Counted from the first letter of the stretch, positions 44,040 to 53,420 are shown. The stretch: DNA of 64,000 bases from Lawsonibacter sp. (GCA_045601985.1 JAZSAQ010000101.1:17019-81018), one strand, 5' to 3'. Notes: generated from the letters alone by a model not told the origin. Numbers and translations: made by a program.

Positions 44040-44107
44040 GCCCACTTAGCTCAGAGGTAGAGCAGCCCCGGATGGGCGCGTCGCGGGTTCGAGTCCCGCA
44101 GTGGGCA
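44040..44107 (+). tRNA. tRNA-like pseudogene with truncated anticodon arm
   Basis: Acceptor GCCCACT/AGTGGGC, D arm GCTC/GAGC, T arm GCGGG-TTCGAGT-CCCGC; anticodon arm only 4 bp with 5-nt loop; no CCA. Confidence 0.6.
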
Positions 44108-44205
44108 CTTTGGGTGGACGCACCCAAAAATTAGGGGCCGAGTTGGTGTCAAAGGCAGGACACTCTCCGTCCAGATGGCGTACGCAGCCAACTCGCCCTA
44201 ATTAC

Positions 44206-44281
44206 GCCTCGTTAGCTCAGTTGGTAGAGCAGTGCCCTTTTAAGGCATTGGTCCGGAGTTCGAGTCTCCGACGGGGCACCA
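44206..44281 (+). tRNA. tRNA-Lys(TTT)
   Basis: Full cloverleaf, loop CTTTTAA, encoded CCA. Confidence 0.95.
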
Positions 44282-44390
44282 GGCGGTTTTGTTCCGCCAA
44301 CGATGGGCAGACAGAGCAGACAGAGATGACACAGGGTCATTCGTCTTGGCAAAGCGGAAAGACGCTTGACGGTGGGACAGACCACTCTAT

Positions 44391-44466
44391 TGCAGAGAGG
44401 ACAAACGGTTAAGTCACGGGCCTCATAAGCCCTGGGGCGCAGGTTCGACTCCTGCCTCTGCAACCA
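44391..44466 (+). tRNA. tRNA-Met/Ile2(CAT)
   Basis: Cloverleaf, loop CTCATAA, acceptor TGCAGAG/CTCTGCA, CCA. Confidence 0.88.
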
Positions 44467-44651
44467 TGTGCCGTTTGTAGCAAATAGTCTTTGGGTCAGA
44501 GATGTTCCAGATTTGCAAACGAGAACACATTAAGAAAAGGTGTAGGCGCGAACTGATTTCTGGATAGGTTCATGGCATAACCTCGGACGGGTGTGTTTGG
44601 TTGGAGCATCGTAAAGAGATGTGCGGTTGGGGGACCTTAACCTCGCCAAAA

Positions 44652-44727
44652 GCTCCCATGGACAAGTTGGTTAAGTTGCCGCCCTTTCACGGCGGAGGCT
44701 CGGGTTCGAATCCCGATGGGAGTACCA
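44652..44727 (+). tRNA. tRNA-Glu(TTC)
   Basis: Cloverleaf, CCGCC-CTTTCAC-GGCGG, CCA. Confidence 0.93.
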
Positions 44728-44996
44728 GTCCGCCGGTTGGGGGAGTCGTGCGACAAAACGAACAAGTTGGCTTCATAAGGGTTGTGTGCGCCTGTGTGCG
44801 GCAGCGACCGCCAGCGGCTAAAAGCGTTGACCCACAACGCTAAAAGACTCCGAGGACGAGGGCAGCAAAAACCGGATAGCCTGCCAAGTGCCGCGCGGCA
44901 CAGAAAATCTGGAAAGAACATCAGCTCGGGGTGTTCCACGTCGTCTTGAGAGGAGGGGTTAGGGGCGACACCAAATCATCGAAAAGGAGGCACAGC

Positions 44997-45149
44997 ATGG
45001 AGCATTTTGTTTGGCAACATATCGAGTTTGACGATGGTAGCAATCCGTATATCTGTAAGACTGCAGAGGCTATGGATGTGATGCAACAGAAGTACACCTT
45101 GGTGCCTCTGCGAGATAATTTCTGGCTCGCCAAGACGAGCAAAGGATAA
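44997..45149 (+). CDS. Small hypothetical protein
   Basis: AGGAGG RBS; FDDGSNPYICKT. Confidence 0.55.
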   Translation: MEHFVWQHIEFDDGSNPYICKTAEAMDVMQQKYTLVPLRDNFWLAKTSKG

Positions 45150-45167
45150 TTTGATAGGAGGATAGTT

Positions 45168-45434
45168 ATGCCATTTGGTATTCCAAGCGAAGATTTTCGC
45201 GGAGGCTTTGGACTCGACGAACAGCCGGCCGCAGCGGCGGCAATCGCGTTGACAGCCCAAGAAGCTGAGTTCTTGGCAGGGCTTGTGGACACGCATCTTT
45301 ACAATAAAAGATGCGCATTGGGCAAGGTGCTTGCCGACCCTGAGTTCTATATCGACGATCCGGACAAGTTGAGGGAGCAAGTTCGCTTCGCCAGAGGCGT
45401 TTTGTCCAAGCTCCAAGGAGGGCCGAATGAATAA
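45168..45434 (+). CDS. Hypothetical protein
   Basis: AGGAGG RBS, 88 aa. Confidence 0.55.
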   Translation: MPFGIPSEDFRGGFGLDEQPAAAAAIALTAQEAEFLAGLVDTHLYNKRCALGKVLADPEFYIDDPDKLREQVRFARGVLSKLQGGPNE

Positions 45435-45589
45435 CGATGAGCGTTTCTACAAGCTGTGCGAATGCGTGAGAGATCTCATAGACGTCCTTCCCAACGATCC
45501 GAACCTTGACTGGATACGGAAAGAAGTGGTGGAGATTATGAAAGACGTCGATGCGGAATGAGCAAATGACGATTTTGTGAGGTGGCATT

Positions 45590-45784
45590 ATGACACTGTG
45601 GAAAGTTGACAGGTATTATCACAATAGCAATGTGCCAGTTTATGAAGTTATGCCCTACAATTTACGAGGACATTTGATGTGTTGTTGGAAATGGTATGGC
45701 ATTAAAGGATTGAAGTGGTGCTATATGTTTAAGAAGCAGGCCGAGCGCAAAGCGATGAAGTTGAACAAGCGCAACAAAGAGTGA
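45590..45784 (+). CDS. Hypothetical protein
   Basis: GAGGT RBS, 64 aa. Confidence 0.5.
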   Translation: MTLWKVDRYYHNSNVPVYEVMPYNLRGHLMCCWKWYGIKGLKWCYMFKKQAERKAMKLNKRNKE

Positions 45785-45805
45785 TTTGATGAGAAAGGGG
45801 CATTT

Positions 45806-46015
45806 ATGAGGATTATATCCAAAGGTAACAAGCAGACAACGTGCGAGCGATGTGGTTGTGTTATGGAATATGACGCAAACGACGTGCGCCGCAAAACCGT
45901 AGAGGTTGGTGTTTCAATATGGTTTGATTGGATGACCAAGTCGGCAGAGCGTGAGTACATCAATTGTCCGCAGTGTGGCTTGGAAATTACAATTTCGCAG
46001 ACGTGCTGCAAGTAA
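45806..46015 (+). CDS. Small zinc-ribbon protein
   Basis: CERC...CPQC. Confidence 0.6.
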   Translation: MRIISKGNKQTTCERCGCVMEYDANDVRRKTVEVGVSIWFDWMTKSAEREYINCPQCGLEITISQTCCK

Positions 46016-46018
46016 GAT

Positions 46019-46106
46019 GCGGTGGTGCCGGAGAGGTTGAACGGGACTGACTCGAAATCAGTTTACAGGCAACTGTACGTAGGTTCGAATCCTACCCGCC
46101 GCGCCA
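46019..46106 (+). tRNA. tRNA-Ser(CGA)
   Basis: Cloverleaf with long variable arm, ACTGA-CTCGAAA-TCAGT, CCA. Confidence 0.92.
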
Positions 46107-46271
46107 AAAGGGAGATGCGCTGACCTCTATAGCTCACCCCGGGGTAGCTCCCCACAAAGATGATCAGAGGTTGTCTTGGTTTTACAAGTAAGACTTTCGA
46201 AAACAGAGAAAGGAAACTCAAGATGCATCTGGGTTGGTAAACCTCGCTCCGGCGGAAGCTTCCAACGAAAT

Positions 46272-46382
46272 GGAGAGCGTATGCAAGTGGACAAAGCAAG
46301 GGACCGTAAATCTCTACGTTGTAGACTTGGGTGCACGTGTGGTCTTTACGTTTCGGTGGTTCGAATCCATCCCTCTCCACCA
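46272..46382 (+). tRNA. Atypical tRNA-Tyr(GTA) with very long variable arm
   Basis: Acceptor GGAGAG/CTCTCC, AGGGA-CCGTAAA-TCTCT, about 39-nt variable region, GGTTCGAATCC, CCA. Confidence 0.7.
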
Positions 46383-46385
46383 TAT

Positions 46386-46460
46386 AGCGGTATAGCCAAG
46401 CGGTAAGGCACGGGACTTTGACTCCCGCATTCGCTGGTTCGAATCCAGCTGCCGCTGCCA
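46386..46460 (+). tRNA. tRNA-Gln(TTG)
   Basis: Cloverleaf, CGGGA-CTTTGAC-TCCCG, CCA. Confidence 0.93.
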
Positions 46461-46657: not shown

Positions 46658-46960
46658 GAATTTTATGGCGTATTGCCACACCGTGGCTCTCTCGATTTGA
46701 TTGGGAGAACAGGGCAGGTGGAGTGAAGGACAAGGACACACCTCCGGAAGACGACCGTGAGCCTCTCGCACTAGAACCCCAAGGTAACTGGTTTCAGCGA
46801 GGTCACGATGGTACGAAATCCGTACAACCCTTGCAAACACAGCATTGATGAGAACAAGCACTCCAAATCTGCTCACAGCAATGAAGAACTTATCATCTTC
46901 AGAAATACCCTGGAAAGGGTCCCTTCGCTAATCCAAGAGGTTATTCTGGCCATAAAATTC
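46658..46960 (+). ncRNA. Retron-like msr/msd element R1
   Basis: Terminal IR GAATTTTATGGC/GCCATAAAATTC, G46670 opposite G46948, hairpins GCCAC-acc-GTGGC and TCTCTCGAT-ttg-ATTGGGAGA. Confidence 0.8.
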
Positions 46961-46985: not shown

Positions 46986-47378
46986 ATGACTATCAAAGTA
47001 ATGAACGACAACACCCTGCTGGTCATTAAGTCTGACCACTCCCTGGAGAACATCAAAAACCTGGAGGAGCAGGACCCCAGCGCCCTGTGCCGGCGCAACG
47101 AAGACGGCGACCCCCTGTTCACCATCGCTGTCGCCAAGAGCGGCGAAGGCCGTCTGAACAACGTGGGGGCTGAGTTTGCCCCCGTGGCCGGCAACGACGG
47201 CAAAGCCAAGATTACCATCACCCTTCCCGCCTGTGACGATGTGAGGGAGTATATCGCCGATAAGTATGGCGTCGCCATCACTTATCTGGTGAGTATGGAC
47301 AGTGATCTGGGCAATGCTCTGACCACTGCCCGCAACCGCAAGAACCAGGTTCTCGGCATGATCAACGTTGTCGAGTAA
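46986..47378 (+). CDS. Hypothetical protein, first gene of the Ubl operon
   Basis: 130 aa, AAAGGA RBS, high-expression codon bias. Confidence 0.75.
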   Translation: MTIKVMNDNTLLVIKSDHSLENIKNLEEQDPSALCRRNEDGDPLFTIAVAKSGEGRLNNVGAEFAPVAGNDGKAKITITLPACDDVREYIADKYGVAITYLVSMDSDLGNALTTARNRKNQVLGMINVVE

Positions 47379-47399
47379 TTAAAAAGGAGGAAAGCAGAA

Positions 47400-47633
47400 A
47401 TGATCAGAGTTATTGTTCGTAACAACGTTTCCCGCACCAGCTTCGACGTGTCCGAGGACATGACCGTCGGCGCCTTTATGGACGCTCACGAAGAGGTCAT
47501 TGACCGCACCAAGACCCCCATGCTCAACGGCGTGACCATCGACGCCGAGGTCCGTAATCAGACCTTCGGCCAGCGCTGCAACGGCCTGGAGTCTGTCGTG
47601 CTGTCCTATACCAAAAACTCCGAAGGCAACTAA
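47400..47633 (+). CDS. Putative prokaryotic ubiquitin-like (beta-grasp) protein
   Basis: 77 aa, IRVIV...SFDVSEDMTVGAFM...MLNG pattern, small-residue C-terminus SEGN, context with E1/E2/JAB. Confidence 0.6.
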   Translation: MIRVIVRNNVSRTSFDVSEDMTVGAFMDAHEEVIDRTKTPMLNGVTIDAEVRNQTFGQRCNGLESVVLSYTKNSEGN

Positions 47634-47640
47634 TTTTATC

Positions 47641-47805
47641 CTTGCGAGGGATACCTACAAAGGGCTCTCAATGTCATTGAGAGTGTTTGTTTAAGAGCAG
47701 ACGCCGCAGAAGCCCGTTATCGACGGCAAAATTGCCAGTTTCAACGGGCTTCTGGGGCTCATTTGCAACATCCCCAAAAGGTTAGCGGGATGTTTAGCTC
47801 GCAAG
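47641..47805 (+). ncRNA. Retron-like msr/msd element R2 (short)
   Basis: IR CTTGCGAG/CTCGCAAG, opposing Gs, GCTCTCAAT-gtc-ATTGAGAGT hairpin, internal stem CAGAAGCCCGTT/AACGGGCTTCTG. Confidence 0.75.
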
Positions 47806-47824
47806 AAAATGAAAGGAGAAAGGT

Positions 47825-49141
47825 ATGCTACCAAGAGAGTATTTGCGGTTTGGCAACCGCGAAACCATTCAAATGCTGTTTCCCGATTTGCGGGTTGAGG
47901 CGTTGAGTGATTACATATCGATACTAGCCATGATTCTGTTTGGGGAGCGCACGTCGGTTCATCCTTTGCGGATTGGGTGTGTTGTGGGACGGGCACCGCT
48001 TGAGGCACCTGATTGCGTCGAAATCTGCTATGGACCAGTGTCGTGCACCTATGACGACGCATGGAAAGCGGTAGGGGCGACAAAGCTCATCGAGCAGAAG
48101 TGGGACGTCTACGTTCGAGTTTTTGTCAACCGAGAGTTGCGATGCAGCCACATGTACATTGGGGACATCCCCGGCGGCGACGGAGCTGCGGCGCGTGCAA
48201 TCGGAGCTCTGCTTCCGCAGGCCGCACCGTGGATGTTTGCTGCGGTTGCTTTGACCGACTGGGAAAAGGAGTTGTGCACGTCTCTTTTGGCCGCAAAGCC
48301 TACCCTTGCGGAGGCAAAAATCAAGCAGTATTTCGAAGAACGAGCATTCTTCGAAACCAAGCTTAAACAAGCACAAATGCGTGGCTTTGTTGACGGCCTG
48401 CTGGAAGCGAAATTGTCCGCCCTCAAACTTCAGGAGGCAACGATCCATTCGCTCATTCTTGAAGCCGAGCAAAAACATAATGAGTTGATGGCCGAGCAAC
48501 ATTCGATTGCACTCAAAATATTGGGTGTGCGCGCTGAACATCGAGACTCTAATATCGAAGATTTTGTGACCGCCCTCGTCGCAAATCCTAATTGTCAGAT
48601 CGTACAAGCCAGAGGGACCAGTCTGACCATTGCGGTGGCCGGCACCATCACTAATCACAACGAAAGCACCTATCGTATTATGGCGCGAGAAAAGCACTCT
48701 GCTCTCTACCCGCCTTCTTGCAATGCATCCTTGATGCAACTTGTGTGGGACGAGCTTTTCCTTAAAGATCGATATCGCATCCAATGCTCTGGCGCCATCT
48801 CGATTTGTCTGGACGGAGGTTATGTGGAAGTTATTAGGGGAGTGGCGGGCAACTTCCCCAACGCGATGCCCAACCCCCATATGTATCACTACGCATGCGC
48901 CGGAGGCTTTAGGGTGATGTATCGTGAAGCTATGGAACGCAACGATTGTGCCGATGTTTTGGATATCGCGTTCAGCGAAGTCAAAAACATCAACTGGGCA
49001 GACACCACCGTCGTAAGCCGCTTCGTCCAAGACGTTATCGGCCGCTGGAGAGATACGGCGTGTATTTGGGACAAAGACGAAAAGGTTTTTATCACGCCGC
49101 AAAACCTGATAGATAGAGTTGGAGGTGCAGAAAATGCCTGA
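47825..49141 (+). CDS. Coiled-coil protein with putative C-terminal E2-like domain
   Basis: PNPHMYHYACAGG resembles the HPH...C signature of prokaryotic E2; lies between Ubl and JAB genes. Confidence 0.55.
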   Translation: MLPREYLRFGNRETIQMLFPDLRVEALSDYISILAMILFGERTSVHPLRIGCVVGRAPLEAPDCVEICYGPVSCTYDDAWKAVGATKLIEQKWDVYVRVFVNRELRCSHMYIGDIPGGDGAAARAIGALLPQAAPWMFAAVALTDWEKELCTSLLAAKPTLAEAKIKQYFEERAFFETKLKQAQMRGFVDGLLEAKLSALKLQEATIHSLILEAEQKHNELMAEQHSIALKILGVRAEHRDSNIEDFVTALVANPNCQIVQARGTSLTIAVAGTITNHNESTYRIMAREKHSALYPPSCNASLMQLVWDELFLKDRYRIQCSGAISICLDGGYVEVIRGVAGNFPNAMPNPHMYHYACAGGFRVMYREAMERNDCADVLDIAFSEVKNINWADTTVVSRFVQDVIGRWRDTACIWDKDEKVFITPQNLIDRVGGAENA

Positions 49142-49718
49142 TATTGATAAAGCGCAGGTAGTGTTCACTCCTAGCGCATGGGTCAAAATGTGGGCTTTGG
49201 TGGATGCATTCAACTCCGAGGTGGCGTGGAACGCAACCTGCCGCCGAGACCCCGACAATGACCGACGTTTCGTCGTGGACGACATCTTGGTCCACAAACA
49301 GGTTGTGACGGGCGGCACTGTGCGCACCGACCCCGCCGAATATGATGATTGGCTGAACGAGTTCGACGACGAAACATTCAATGCCATTCGTCTGCACGGC
49401 CACAGCCACTATTACTGTGGTGCATTTGCGTCCGGACTGGACACCGAGCTCCAAGAGGACATCACCTCTCAGTTGACCGGAGATATGTTCTACATCTTCA
49501 TGATCGTAAACCGCCGGCGCGATATCTGGATTAAGGTTTGCGACAAAAAGGATGGGTTGGCGAGATGGGGCAACATGGTGGACATTTCGGTAGACTTGCC
49601 CGAATGCAACCTGGATGCTTTCATCAACAATGCCCGCACCTTGGTCGAGAAGAAACCTATTGCGCACACTTACAATCACAAAACCAACGAGGAGGAAGAA
49701 ACAGATGGACCTGGCTAA
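49134..49718 (+). CDS. JAB/MPN domain metalloprotease
   Basis: N-terminal E (SEVAW) and HSH-x7-S-x2-D (HSHYYCGAFASGLD). Confidence 0.85.
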   Translation: MPDIDKAQVVFTPSAWVKMWALVDAFNSEVAWNATCRRDPDNDRRFVVDDILVHKQVVTGGTVRTDPAEYDDWLNEFDDETFNAIRLHGHSHYYCGAFASGLDTELQEDITSQLTGDMFYIFMIVNRRRDIWIKVCDKKDGLARWGNMVDISVDLPECNLDAFINNARTLVEKKPIAHTYNHKTNEEEETDGPG

Positions 49719-50397
49719 ATCTTATGAAGTTTTCCAGCCGGAGAACGTTGCTGAGCGCATCCACATCATTGGATGCGGCGCCGGCGGCTCGACCATCGCC
49801 GAACTGCTGGCTCGGTATGGACTGACCAATATGGTGCTGTACGACGATGACATTGTGGATAGCCACAACATCGCCAACCAGATGTACCGCGCTCACGACA
49901 TCGGCCGCCCCAAGGTTGAGGCGTTGGCCGACATCCTCAAGGAAATCAACCCCGACATTGTTGAGGGCGGATTGACGCTGGTCAACGACCGATACACGGA
50001 CCAGCGCTTGAGTGGCTACGTGTTCCTGTGTGTGGATCGCATCGAGACCCGCAAAGAAATCGTAACAATGCATCGCAACAACCCCAACATCAAGGCAATG
50101 TTTGAGTTCCGCAATCGTTTGTACGACGCACAGCACCGCGCAGCGGACTGGTCCAAGCCGGAGCAGGTGCGCGATCTTCTCAAGTCTATGCAGTTCACGC
50201 ACGAAGACGCAATGCGCGACACTCCTGTTAGTGCGTGCAACCTGCCTTTGTCGGTGGCTCCCACGTTGCGTGTTATTTCGAGCTACGGAGTGGCAAATTT
50301 CGCAAACTTCGTAACCGGCAAGGGGCTTAAGACGTTTGTTCAGATGAACCCCAACGAAGATGAAACTGGCTTCGGTTTTGACATCGAAGCTTATTAA
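49705..50397 (+). CDS. ThiF/E1-like adenylyltransferase
   Basis: IHIIGCGAGGS, YDDDIVDSHNIANQ, GRPKVEAL, FLCVD. Confidence 0.9.
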   Translation: MDLAKSYEVFQPENVAERIHIIGCGAGGSTIAELLARYGLTNMVLYDDDIVDSHNIANQMYRAHDIGRPKVEALADILKEINPDIVEGGLTLVNDRYTDQRLSGYVFLCVDRIETRKEIVTMHRNNPNIKAMFEFRNRLYDAQHRAADWSKPEQVRDLLKSMQFTHEDAMRDTPVSACNLPLSVAPTLRVISSYGVANFANFVTGKGLKTFVQMNPNEDETGFGFDIEAY

Positions 50398-50404
50398 ACT
50401 GTAA

Positions 50405-50680
50405 CCATAGCGAATAGTCAAGTTTTGACGCACTCAATGTGATTGGGTGCATGGCGAAGTTCGAGGAAGAGGAAAGGGAGGAACACCTAAATCGGACCCC
50501 AGGTCCCGCAAAGTGGGCTGCGCCGAAATCCCTCGTTACGCCGTGCTTACGCCGACCCTTTGTGCCGCAATGGCTGGCGGCACAAACGCACACGCTTAAC
50601 CTTCAACCCTCATCTATTGAAGGATCAAGTTAGCCGGATACCTCAGATCCGCACCGCGATTCTATGCATTTTGGCTATGG
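50405..50680 (+). ncRNA. Retron-like msr/msd element R3 (directly upstream of RT)
   Basis: IR CCATAGC/GCTATGG, G50412 opposite G50673, hairpins GTCAA-gtt-TTGAC and GCACTCAAT-gtg-ATTGGGTGC. Confidence 0.75.
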
Positions 50681-50701
50681 AACAAGAAAGGAGCAATTAT
50701 T

Positions 50702-51862
50702 ATGTATATCACTACCCCGCTGCCTCCTCGACATCCCCAAATCCCTATGGAGGCTCTGTTCGATTTTGACAACACCTTTTCTGCAGACCGCTACAAACCG
50801 TTTTACGACCCCAGCGCTACCACAACGTCCGTCCGGGACAGCGTGCCCGCCTCTGTGTATTCCAGATGGCGCCCGGAACGCCTCGTACATAACCTGCGGA
50901 GGTTTGTCGAAGCTCATCAAGCGGTGATCGGCCTGAGCGATTATCGACACCTCTACAACCACTACGAAATCCCCAAGAAGAACGGCAAGACGCGTCCCAT
51001 TGATGAGCCGTTGCCTCTTCTGCGACTGGCGCAAGACTCCCTGGTTCAAATCATCGAGGATTGCATGCCGGCAACGCACCACTCGGCGGCCTACGCCTAT
51101 GTCAAGCGTCGCGAAACGCTGGACGCAGTCAAGAAGCATCAAGCCAACGAGTCTTGGTGGTTCGCCAAGTTTGACTTCACCAACTTTTTTGGCTCGACTA
51201 CTCCCGAGTTCCTCGAAGCTATGTTGAAGCAGATCTATCCGTTCTCTTGGGCGTACCAGAACGGTGAATGGGAGGTTGTGTCCAAAGCTCTGTCAGTATG
51301 TTTCCTTCGCGGCGGACTGCCCCAAGGCTCCCCGGTCAGCCCCTTGCTGACCAACATCATGATGATCCCCCTCGATTATGCTTTGAACACCGCTCTGCGT
51401 AACTACGAAAAAAGGAGCTTTGTCTACACCCGTTACGCGGACGACATCCAGATTTCCTGTAAGGTTGACTTTGACGTGAAGCTGATCGAGAAGCTGATTG
51501 AGCATACCCTGGGAGAGTTCCAGGCTCCCTTTGCCCTGAACAGAGAGAAGACGCATTATGGTTCTCGCAGCGGCCGAAACTGGATGTTGGGCATCAAGCT
51601 GAACGCCGAAAATAAGACGACTGTTGGCCACGTCAACAAGAAGTTTATGAAGGCGATGTTGACCAACTATGTCTTGGACCGCAAAAAAGGCGCAGACCGC
51701 AAGTGGGAGCTGAGCGAAATTCAGACGCTGTCTGGCAACCTCAGCTACTACCGCCACATCGAAAAGGAATATTTTGACCAAGTCGTCCGGCGACTGGGCG
51801 AGAAGTTCGGCGTTGACATTGACGCCGCGCTGAAGCACGACATCAAAACTATGAGCGTATAA
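50702..51862 (+). CDS. Retron-like reverse transcriptase
   Basis: IPKKNGKTRPI, AYAY, KFDFTNFFGS, LPQGSPVSP, YTRYADDI; 386 aa, no maturase or nuclease domain. Confidence 0.93.
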   Translation: MYITTPLPPRHPQIPMEALFDFDNTFSADRYKPFYDPSATTTSVRDSVPASVYSRWRPERLVHNLRRFVEAHQAVIGLSDYRHLYNHYEIPKKNGKTRPIDEPLPLLRLAQDSLVQIIEDCMPATHHSAAYAYVKRRETLDAVKKHQANESWWFAKFDFTNFFGSTTPEFLEAMLKQIYPFSWAYQNGEWEVVSKALSVCFLRGGLPQGSPVSPLLTNIMMIPLDYALNTALRNYEKRSFVYTRYADDIQISCKVDFDVKLIEKLIEHTLGEFQAPFALNREKTHYGSRSGRNWMLGIKLNAENKTTVGHVNKKFMKAMLTNYVLDRKKGADRKWELSEIQTLSGNLSYYRHIEKEYFDQVVRRLGEKFGVDIDAALKHDIKTMSV

Positions 51863-51863
51863 A

Positions 51864-52188
51864 GTTCGCGATGCATTTCTGCTATACGCAGGTCTTTTGA
51901 TTTAATCAAAAGAACAGGATTGGCGAAAAGAATAGGGGCAGCTGGGAAGGCAGGGGCCGATCAGGTACTTAGCAACAACCCAGTTCGCAGGCTTAATAAA
52001 GCCGGAGCGCCGAGAACTCCACAGAAAAACCCAACAACTTGGTAACCAACAGATACCATTCGGCGGTCCGCAATCCCAGACCCATCGCCACCAACATCAT
52101 CGCAACAACCGTTCCAACAACTCTGAAGTCATCTCGACGCGAGGTTACACCGCAAGGCGCCTCCAAGATGACCTTTTAGATCGCGAAC
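51864..52188 (+). ncRNA. Retron-like msr/msd element R4
   Basis: IR GTTCGCGAT/ATCGCGAAC, GCATTT, CTGC-tatac-GCAG, TCTTTTGAT-tta-ATCAAAAGA, ACAGGATTGGCG. Confidence 0.85.
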
Positions 52189-52903: not shown

Positions 52904-53227
52904 ATGAAGATTAAACGCGAAGTCAACGGCGTTCCTATGGAGTTTGAGTTGACTGACGACGAACTCTGGAGCGCTTTTCAAGAAAAGGAGCGGCAATTTG
53001 ATAGGCAGGACATAGAGGATGCTATCTGCGACCTCGAAGACGAGGATGTTGATGACCTCTATGGTGTATCTAGAGAGGTTCTTGAATCTCTATTCGACCA
53101 AATGGCCTCCAAAAAACGTCGATATCAAGATGAATACGGGATGACGTGGACCGAAGCCCGGGACGAGGCGATTCGAGATGTTGTTCGACACTATAAGGAG
53201 GGGCGTCATGAGATTAAGAGTGAATGA
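52904..53227 (+). CDS. Acidic hypothetical protein
   Basis: GGAGG RBS, 107 aa. Confidence 0.65.
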   Translation: MKIKREVNGVPMEFELTDDELWSAFQEKERQFDRQDIEDAICDLEDEDVDDLYGVSREVLESLFDQMASKKRRYQDEYGMTWTEARDEAIRDVVRHYKEGRHEIKSE

Positions 53228-53420
53228 TACGCCCGATTTTAATCTGACGCTGGATCTCAACGTAGACTACGAATCTGAGAGCATTGAGGTCGAAGTGGGG
53301 TTCTGGGACAAGAAGGAGCACACTCGGCAACACTATACGTACCCGGCGGAGCAATTTGGTGCGGCTTTGTATATGTATCGAGGCTGCGAGGCTGTTATCC
53401 AAGAACAAACTAGCGTTTGA
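53208..53420 (+). CDS. Hypothetical protein
   Basis: AAGGAGG RBS, overlaps upstream gene. Confidence 0.55.
   Translation: MRLRVNDTPDFNLTLDLNVDYESESIEVEVGFWDKKEHTRQHYTYPAEQFGAALYMYRGCEAVIQEQTSV

Follow-up and report, generated by a model that had tools for sequence, protein, structure and literature searches.

In prokaryotes, ubiquitin-like (Ubl) conjugation has been described in host defence operons, namely Bil, Bub and the Cap2/Cap3 genes of the cyclic-oligonucleotide-based antiphage signalling system (CBASS), and retrons are likewise known as host defence systems, in which one RNA is combined with a toxic effector. Here we describe a locus at which Ubl conjugation and a retron both stand on the phage side, in one widespread module. 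The locus lies in a window of 64,000 nucleotides of DNA from Lawsonibacter sp. (GCA_045601985.1 JAZSAQ010000101.1:17019-81018), and all positions are counted from the first letter of this stretch. On balance, we think that it is a phage-borne composite module, with genetic coupling between a complete minimal cascade for Ubl conjugation and a retron-type reverse transcriptase (RT) with its array of template RNAs. Downstream of a group of tRNA genes, the order on the + strand is R1, orf130, Ubl, R2, p438, JAB, E1, R3, RT and R4, where R1 to R4 are RNA spacers, orf130 and p438 encode proteins of 130 and 438 amino acids, p438 is the candidate conjugating enzyme (E2), JAB is a peptidase and E1 is the activating enzyme. 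The literature that we searched contains no description of a Ubl cascade paired with a retron-type RT; one survey mentions only retron-like RT clades in viruses (PMC13681634).

Linkage of the cascade and the reverse transcriptase

The Ubl genes and the RT keep company across genomes. E1, JAB and p438 accompany the RT at 72 of the 73 RT-seeded viral loci that have room upstream, and the RT is present at 63 of 65 E1-seeded loci with room in genome bins; the carriers are kin, so these counts do not represent independent events. The order p438–JAB–E1–RT is kept at all 15 JAB-seeded loci, and orf130 homologues occur at 52 of 73 E1-seeded loci. Clustering of the open reading frames (ORFs) of 39 full loci recovered only p438 (37 loci), RT (37), JAB (35) and E1 and orf130 (30) as common families, and no flanking gene family exceeded 12 of the 39. 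Independent assortment of the RT and the E1–JAB set, the outcome that the earlier note had set against a joint module, is excluded by this survey of gene neighbourhoods.

Rearrangements take place within the module. The RT gene lies between JAB and E1 in one locus (L151), and Ubl and orf130 are swapped at four others. At 12 loci, the interval between Ubl and p438 contains a complete RNase H1 gene, encoding a hybrid-binding domain and RNase H; at 4 loci, the gene lies 3' of the RT. Retron DNA synthesis uses RNase H1 activity. One locus (L082, 5773-8861) retains a remnant consisting of orf130, Ubl and the first 52 residues of p438, followed by the RT from residue 97; a single deletion there took the rest of p438, JAB, E1, the RNA and the N terminus of the RT together.

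Module carriers encode a terminase that is 31–36% identical to that of the window. Of 29 contigs found through the terminase, six encode E1 and RT together, and the remaining 23 encode neither. The latter include six contigs with a completeness of at least 94%, and we therefore rejected the idea of the module as a universal core of this phage lineage. A search with a single terminase protein returned one fragment only.

According to their labels, the carriers come from human, ruminant, rabbit, chicken and termite guts, and the RT is present on more than 500 IMG/VR contigs. Module contigs were binned mostly with gut Clostridia, and also with Alistipes, Prevotella, a betaproteobacterium and an archaeon (L100–L172, GTDB labels); this diversity of labels suggests that phage contigs are frequently mis-binned. 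An isolate contributes one of the modules, on a contig of 428 kb (L160), and IMG/VR classifies one of the records as a provirus (G404).

Other genes appear in the module with less regularity. The RNase H1 gene is exemplified by L007:5363-6007 and L011:5334-6050, with 14 further loci; the window's contig has no RNase H, and the only RNase H of its bin is on contig C16. A semi-constant seventh member of 160–190 amino acids, not assigned to a family, occupies the JAB–E1 interval in about 30 loci and a position 3' of the RT in about 31 (for example, L004:8827-9387 and L007:8827-9315). Its match in the window is weak (80 amino acids, E = 0.002) and falls at 53178-53420, 1.3 kb downstream of the RT. 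A DUF6273 protein is encoded between E1 and RT at 39 of 167 loci (for example, L002:9435-10301 and L003:9624-10274), and is absent from the window.

E1, JAB and the ubiquitin-like protein

The E1 gene (49705..50397, + strand) encodes a minimal, single-domain adenylating enzyme. The protein matches the Pfam ThiF family (PF00899) at 6e-22 (78.4 bits; cut-off, 28.1), and a single ThiF domain of 223–230 amino acids makes up all 12 aligned members. Profile searches of the PDB matched UBA5, Uba1, MoeB and ThiF at 1e-15 to 1e-10, and also MccB and Cap2. The best NCBIfam matches are ThiF, MoeB and TcdA, all of them far under their cut-offs, and the Rossmann part matches the PADLOC E1–E2 models at 5.9e-17. 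Invariant in the aligned E1s are a G-C-G-x-x-G-S loop, the Mg-binding D111 and Cys178 within P-V-S-A-C. As judged from sequence, this is a minimal ThiF-type enzyme.

The neighbouring JAB gene (49134..49718, + strand) is predicted to encode a JAMM metallopeptidase. Twelve members of the family (the window protein and 11 relatives) had no match to the Pfam JAB models. A profile built from 40 homologue cores matched 17 PDB entries, all of them JAMM enzymes (Rpn11, PSMD14, CSN5 and JAMM1), with E-values of 0.003 for Rpn11, 0.042 for an archaeal Rpn11-like protein, 0.13 for CSN5 and 0.35 for JAMM1. The zinc-site residues align with the Rpn11 site. An upstream Glu and the motif H-S-H-x7-S-x2-D, the latter already picked out in the earlier note, are invariant across the 40 cores. 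These alignments identify the protein as a divergent JAMM peptidase, in a family of 2759 proteins. The window JAB is a short form (about 194 amino acids) that lacks an N-terminal segment of about 45 amino acids and a low-complexity tail of about 100 amino acids, rich in Gly, Tyr, Lys and Asp, both of which are present in its relatives (L002–L015).

The Ubl gene (47400..47633, + strand) encodes 77 amino acids. Its AlphaFold2 model, from an alignment of 12 homologues, has a mean predicted local distance difference test (pLDDT) score of 85.9 and the topology beta-beta-alpha-beta-beta-beta, with strands at residues 2-7, 12-17, 40-42 and 65-70, a helix at 23-29 and a disordered tail. Foldseek searches of the PDB gave SUMO2, SUMO1, ubiquitin, ISG15 and NEDD8 as the best matches (template modelling (TM) scores of 0.6–0.7, E about 3e-3), and the top 50 are mostly SUMO, ubiquitin, ISG15 and NEDD8. 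The modelled protein is thus a ubiquitin/SUMO-like beta-grasp, the fold that had been proposed for it from the sequence.

Across 87 distinct members from 121 loci, the Ubl family ends in K-A-D-[N/G]-[A/G] followed by 0–4 variable residues. The window protein ends in S-E-G-N, in which S-E-G is the aligned end and the Asn is one additional residue. A conserved small residue with a variable extension reads as the signature of a Ubl precursor that needs trimming by a peptidase, and the window protein is probably such a precursor (...S-E-G|N). The removal of the terminal Asn by JAB, as the earlier note had suggested, would fit the ends of the whole family. The Bil peptidase has been shown to trim a Ubl precursor in this manner, exposing its C-terminal residue (PMC10557695).

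A complex model of two E1 chains with Ubl scored 0.76, compared with 0.00 for the best of three controls; of 80 solved complexes, 58 reach this mark, as do 2 of 110 mismatched pairs. Agreement of contacts between runs was at least 89%, and the partner pLDDT was at least 86. In the model, Ubl residues 71-77 are threaded into the adenylation site of E1 and contact E1 residues 26-27, 58, 109-113 and 135-143, and E1 residues 171-173 and 181-183, which flank Cys178, also contact Ubl. Because similar complexes have been solved (ThiF–ThiS, MoeB–MoaD and UBA5–UFM1), the pass may reflect likeness rather than binding.

p438, the candidate E2

The p438 gene (47825..49141, + strand) encodes a protein of three parts: an N-terminal alpha/beta domain, a coiled coil at residues 175-241, modelled as a helix of some 65 residues, and an alpha/beta domain at the C terminus that may be UBC/RWD-like. 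The model, built from 112 sequences, has a pLDDT of 81.8, which rises above 92 over residues 250-438. The family is unannotated and large, with 2417 representative clusters, 1111 of which match at E <1e-30. Identity to the window protein is only about 18%, and P349-N350-x-H352-x5-C358-x-G360, the best-conserved stretch of the family, is invariant or nearly so in the 112 homologues. This motif follows the beta-sheet, as do the HPN flap and catalytic Cys of E2s; the canonical His before the Pro of the H-P-N flap is absent. The distance of 8 from Asn to Cys equals that in Ubc9.

The search for relatives outside the family gave little. In BFVD, a single uncharacterised family member was found, and an Atlas shape search returned family members only. 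A weak lead came from an Atlas feature search, which linked p438 (0.88) to a viral cluster with Prok-E2_D in 39% of its members. The Prok-E2_D family itself (PF14460) had no match in the window's genome, and its single match over 401 genomes of the phylum was too few for an E2 reference alignment. Scattered low-probability matches of the N-terminal domain to nucleotidyltransferases were not relied on. Some 45 residues at the N terminus, conserved in relatives, are missing from the window p438. We put the odds that p438 is E2-like at roughly even, the main alternative being that it is a non-catalytic RWD-type scaffold or a target.

The reverse transcriptase and its RNAs

The RT (50702..51862, + strand) is predicted to be of the retron type. 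It matches Pfam RVT_1 at 1.2e-21 and PADLOC RT_II-A at 1.8e-54, and its match to the NCBIfam retron St85 RT (1.5e-55, 188.5 bits) lies under the cut-off of 235; the best-scoring models are retron RTs. In the records L203 and L246 (G423 and G427), the RT match is split by about 170–230 nucleotides within one open frame, as if by an in-frame insertion.

R1 to R4 are non-coding spacers, each closed by inverted terminal arms of 7–12 bp. A 5' scaffold of two hairpins is common to them and to four further copies 3' of the RT. R3 (about 50405..50680, + strand) lies directly 5' of the RT, where a retron msr-msd would sit. R1 (46658..46960, + strand) is closed by a perfect 12-bp inverted repeat (46658-46669 / 46949-46960) and has its 5' scaffold in common with R4–R8. 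The short copy R2 (47641..47805, + strand; arms 47641-47648 / 47798-47805), in the interval from Ubl to p438, has an internal 16-bp stem at 47703-47758, and its hairpin 2 is common to R1 and R3–R8. R4 (51864..52188, + strand; arms 51864-51871 / 52181-52188) gave a weak match to the covariance model (E = 0.075); it is the first of five copies 3' of the RT that have YGCRATGCATTT in common, with scaffold copies at 51867, 55376, 57430, 58822 and 59436.

Relatives have the same kind of RNA at the RT. In all 150 loci, E1 and RT are separated by 217 nucleotides or more, and the pre-RT spacers of 30 relatives combine a conserved 5' scaffold, in which hairpins covary, with a middle that varies and with 5' and 3' arms that pair with each other. 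In 15 relatives, the covariance model found one copy 5' of every RT and two to four copies 3' of it, on the same strand and with unrelated middles, and no copy within the Ubl operon. Because of that, the presence of R1 and R2 inside the operon is a peculiarity of the window phage. The interleaving of the operon with four RNAs, as first noted for this DNA, is real in the window, where R1–R4 are true non-coding spacers, but its part within the operon is absent from the 15 relatives.

Proposed mechanism and alternatives

From the computed folds, motifs, E1–Ubl docking model and genetic linkage, we infer the chemical steps, the E2 role, the target and the purpose of the module as follows. The JAMM peptidase would trim the variable extension of the Ubl precursor, removing the last Asn so that Gly (Ala in most relatives) is exposed. 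The E1, as a homodimer of ThiF type, would take the Ubl tail into its ATP site, adenylate it and probably pass Ubl to the Cys of its own crossover loop. Cys358, in the putative UBC/RWD-like domain of p438, would next receive Ubl, p438 would conjugate it to a target, and JAMM may reverse this conjugation as well. Together with the RT and its RNAs, the cascade would form a retron-like system of two arms that serves one pathway in phage–host or phage–phage conflict. Its purpose may be counter-defence, the exclusion of rival phages or the control of the phage's own cycle. Control could run in either direction, with an RT product gating conjugation or conjugation regulating the RT. A more far-reaching version, which seems to us distinctly improbable, makes the cascade and the retron one machine: several different DNAs made by the RT would serve as guides or baits and so determine the timing or the target of conjugation, or Ubl would be attached by a covalent bond to the RT or to the DNA that it makes, for nucleic-acid-programmed tagging directed against host defences or rival phages.

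Several observations weigh against a complete cascade coupled to the RT. The window p438 matched nothing in Pfam, PHROGs, PADLOC or NCBIfam, and 95 members of the family, compared with the E2 families of Pfam (UQ_con and Prok-E2_A to E) at E-values up to 1, gave only coiled-coil noise. Profile searches of the PDB with the whole of p438 and with its C-terminal domain found no E2, no E2 was listed by Foldseek against the PDB, and hhalign against one Prok-E2_D protein gave a probability of 0.1. Of the two calls that the earlier note had ranked below E1 and JAB, that of the Ubl has held up through its beta-grasp model, and that of the E2 stands on its conserved P-N-x-H-x5-C motif but has found no sequence model to match. 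The N-terminal half of p438 and orf130 have no assigned function; for orf130, searches of Pfam, PHROG, PADLOC, NCBIfam, PDB profiles and Atlas made no assignment. A Gly-Gly end is missing from most Ubl members, including that of the window, and no E3, target or effector domain is recognisable. The interleaving of RNAs with Ubl genes carries no weight, because R1 and R2 have no counterparts in the relatives. Because the carriers share a distantly related terminase, the co-occurrence is partly due to common descent, and the six positive terminase-related contigs may be one subclade.

This last point bears on the possibility that two independent functions are merely adjacent, with Ubl, E1 and JAB linked to the RT and its RNAs only by common descent in one phage lineage. 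A related terminase in all carriers tested and the potential subclade are what would be expected if so. However, flanking genes vary around six constant module genes, reordering has occurred without separation, RNase H1 lies inside the Ubl part at 12 loci, one deletion took both halves, and E1 (50–58% identity) and RT (41–51%) are better conserved than the terminase (31–36%); we therefore rate mere adjacency as quite unlikely. Conjugation could instead be E2-free, as in archaeal SAMPylation, with the Ubl handled by E1 and JAMM alone and p438 acting as a target, a scaffold or a sensor linking the cascade to the RT or its DNA. We regard this as unlikely, although worth keeping in view. A P-N-x-H-x5-C-x-G motif that is near-invariant despite about 18% identity is typical of an active site, the spacing from Asn to Cys is that of E2s, and p438 is translationally coupled to JAB and E1.

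Two further explanations keep the E1 and change the chemistry. JAB, E1 and a beta-grasp protein co-occur in sulfur-transfer pathways too, and the beta-grasp protein might be a sulfur carrier, thiocarboxylated by E1 (compare ThiS, MoaD and TtuB), that passes sulfur to nucleic acid such as the phage tRNAs or the RT product and is freed by JAB. The best NCBIfam matches of the E1 (ThiF, MoeB and TcdA) and the adjoining tRNA array would suit such a role. Yet all of those matches are far under their cut-offs, no rhodanese, cysteine desulfurase or PP-loop thiolase is encoded in the module, the C terminus is not Gly-Gly, the Ubl folds closest to SUMO and ubiquitin rather than ThiS or MoaD, and the Cys domain of p438 would have no place in the pathway, all of which make a sulfur carrier very improbable. 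Scarcely credible, in our estimation, is a nucleotide or nucleic acid as the acceptor, with E1-activated Ubl transferred either to a nucleotide or to the RT product to yield a peptidyl-nucleotide or protein–DNA conjugate. The idea draws on MccB being among the PDB relatives of the E1, on the constant association of the module with an RT and several template RNAs, and on the conservation of Asn beside the C-terminal residue in most Ubls. MccB, however, requires a C-terminal Asn on a short peptide, whereas the Ubls are folded beta-grasp proteins whose conserved last residue is Ala or Gly.

Phage setting and gene layout

The window is phage DNA, as had been supposed from its sequence: its minus-strand half codes for a tape measure protein, a minor tail protein, portal, terminase and exonuclease, and six tRNA genes are clustered upstream of the module at 44040-46460. 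The sixth tRNA (44040-44107) was found by Rfam (51 bits) and not by ARAGORN. The contig is 162,752 bp in length with a GC content of 53%, and is the largest contig of a 1.87-Mb metagenome-assembled genome with a GC content of 57%. A megablast search of the locus against phage records gave no match.

The ORF positions, the shared + strand and the tight packing recorded in the earlier note agree with our coordinates. The first gene, orf130 (46986..47378, + strand), encodes a conserved protein of 130 amino acids with no assigned fold and is a constant neighbour of the Ubl gene. Every module gene is preceded by a strong Shine–Dalgarno sequence or ribosome-binding site. The reported overlaps of p438, JAB and E1 are present, at 8 nucleotides for p438/JAB and 14 for JAB/E1, once the starts of JAB and E1 are corrected. 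For JAB, the TTG at 49119 was replaced by the ATG at 49134, the most likely start, which has GGAGG 8 nucleotides upstream. The E1 start at 49615 was replaced by the ATG at 49705, on the basis of an upstream GGAGG and agreement with homologues of 223 amino acids.

Comparison with known systems

In gene content, the module resembles Bil (BilABCD, types I and II; PMC10557695, PMC11601596), whose operon likewise has no E3 and brings a free Ubl together with an E1, a JAB/JAMM peptidase and an E2 (a candidate one in the module), and in which pre-processing of the Ubl by the peptidase exposes its C-terminal residue. However, the E1 of Bil is large and of IAD-AAD-CYS architecture, and that of the module is a single adenylation domain of 223 amino acids with a loop Cys. 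The Bil E2 is recognisable, whereas p438 matches no E2 model and has an additional N-terminal domain and a coiled coil. At the end of the module Ubl, Asn or Gly is followed by Ala or Gly, in contrast to the Gly exposed from a Bil-type precursor, and Bil is a host defence operon whereas the module is phage-borne and joined to an RT.

Type I Bub (6E.1; PMC11601596) likewise pairs a JAMM peptidase with a minimal homodimeric ThiF/UBA5-like E1, the two being fused as BubCD; in the module their genes overlap by 14 nucleotides. The Bub E1 has no crossover-loop Cys and uses oxyesters, whereas this Cys is invariant in the module E1. Bub also has a Ubl–E2 fusion and a DUF6527 serine protease, in contrast to the separate genes of the module, which has no DUF6527 match. 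Type II CBASS, through Cap2/Cap3, attaches an E1/E2/JAB set to a nucleotide-polymerising enzyme, much as E1, JAB and a candidate E2 accompany the RT in the module; C termini end in a small residue in both, and the Rossmann part of the module E1 matches the PADLOC E1–E2 models (5.9e-17). The module has neither a CD-NTase nor an E1–E2 fusion, and its Ubl is a separate protein, whereas CBASS conjugates the tail of the enzyme itself.

The archaeal SAMP/UbaA/HvJAMM1 pathway also combines a small beta-grasp modifier, a single-domain E1 and a JAMM peptidase, but SAMPs end in Gly-Gly and have no known E2-like partner, and the module E1 scores 43 bits against the NCBIfam UbaA cut-off of 450. In the PRTRC cassette of plasmids and conjugative elements, ThiF-like, E2-like (Prok-E2_D) and JAB-like proteins are again carried on a mobile element. 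PRTRC has no RT. The module E1 reaches only 29.5 bits for PRTRC_ThiF (TIGR03736; cut-off, 144.75), the window's genome has no PF14460 match, and a ParB-related gene is also missing.

With type II-A retrons (the St85/Sen2 family), the module shares its best RT models, a structured RNA with pairing arms directly 5' of the RT and tightly linked accessory genes. It differs in that its RT is under the NCBIfam cut-off, each phage has 3–8 RNA copies with unrelated middles, and the accessory genes form a Ubl cascade rather than an NDT-type effector. The carriers are large phages that look lytic, and any multicopy single-stranded DNA of the module is putative.

The module therefore fails the defining features of Bil, Bub, CBASS, SAMP, PRTRC and type II-A retrons alike, whether in E1 architecture, gene fusions, DUF6527, CD-NTase or NCBIfam cut-offs. 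If its two halves do work together, it would be a new type of retron with a protein-tagging effector arm, and its cascade would be the first complete one for Ubl conjugation to be assigned to a virus of bacteria. For laboratory study, it offers a compact E1, a new variant of an E2-like fold and natural retrons with multiple RNAs.

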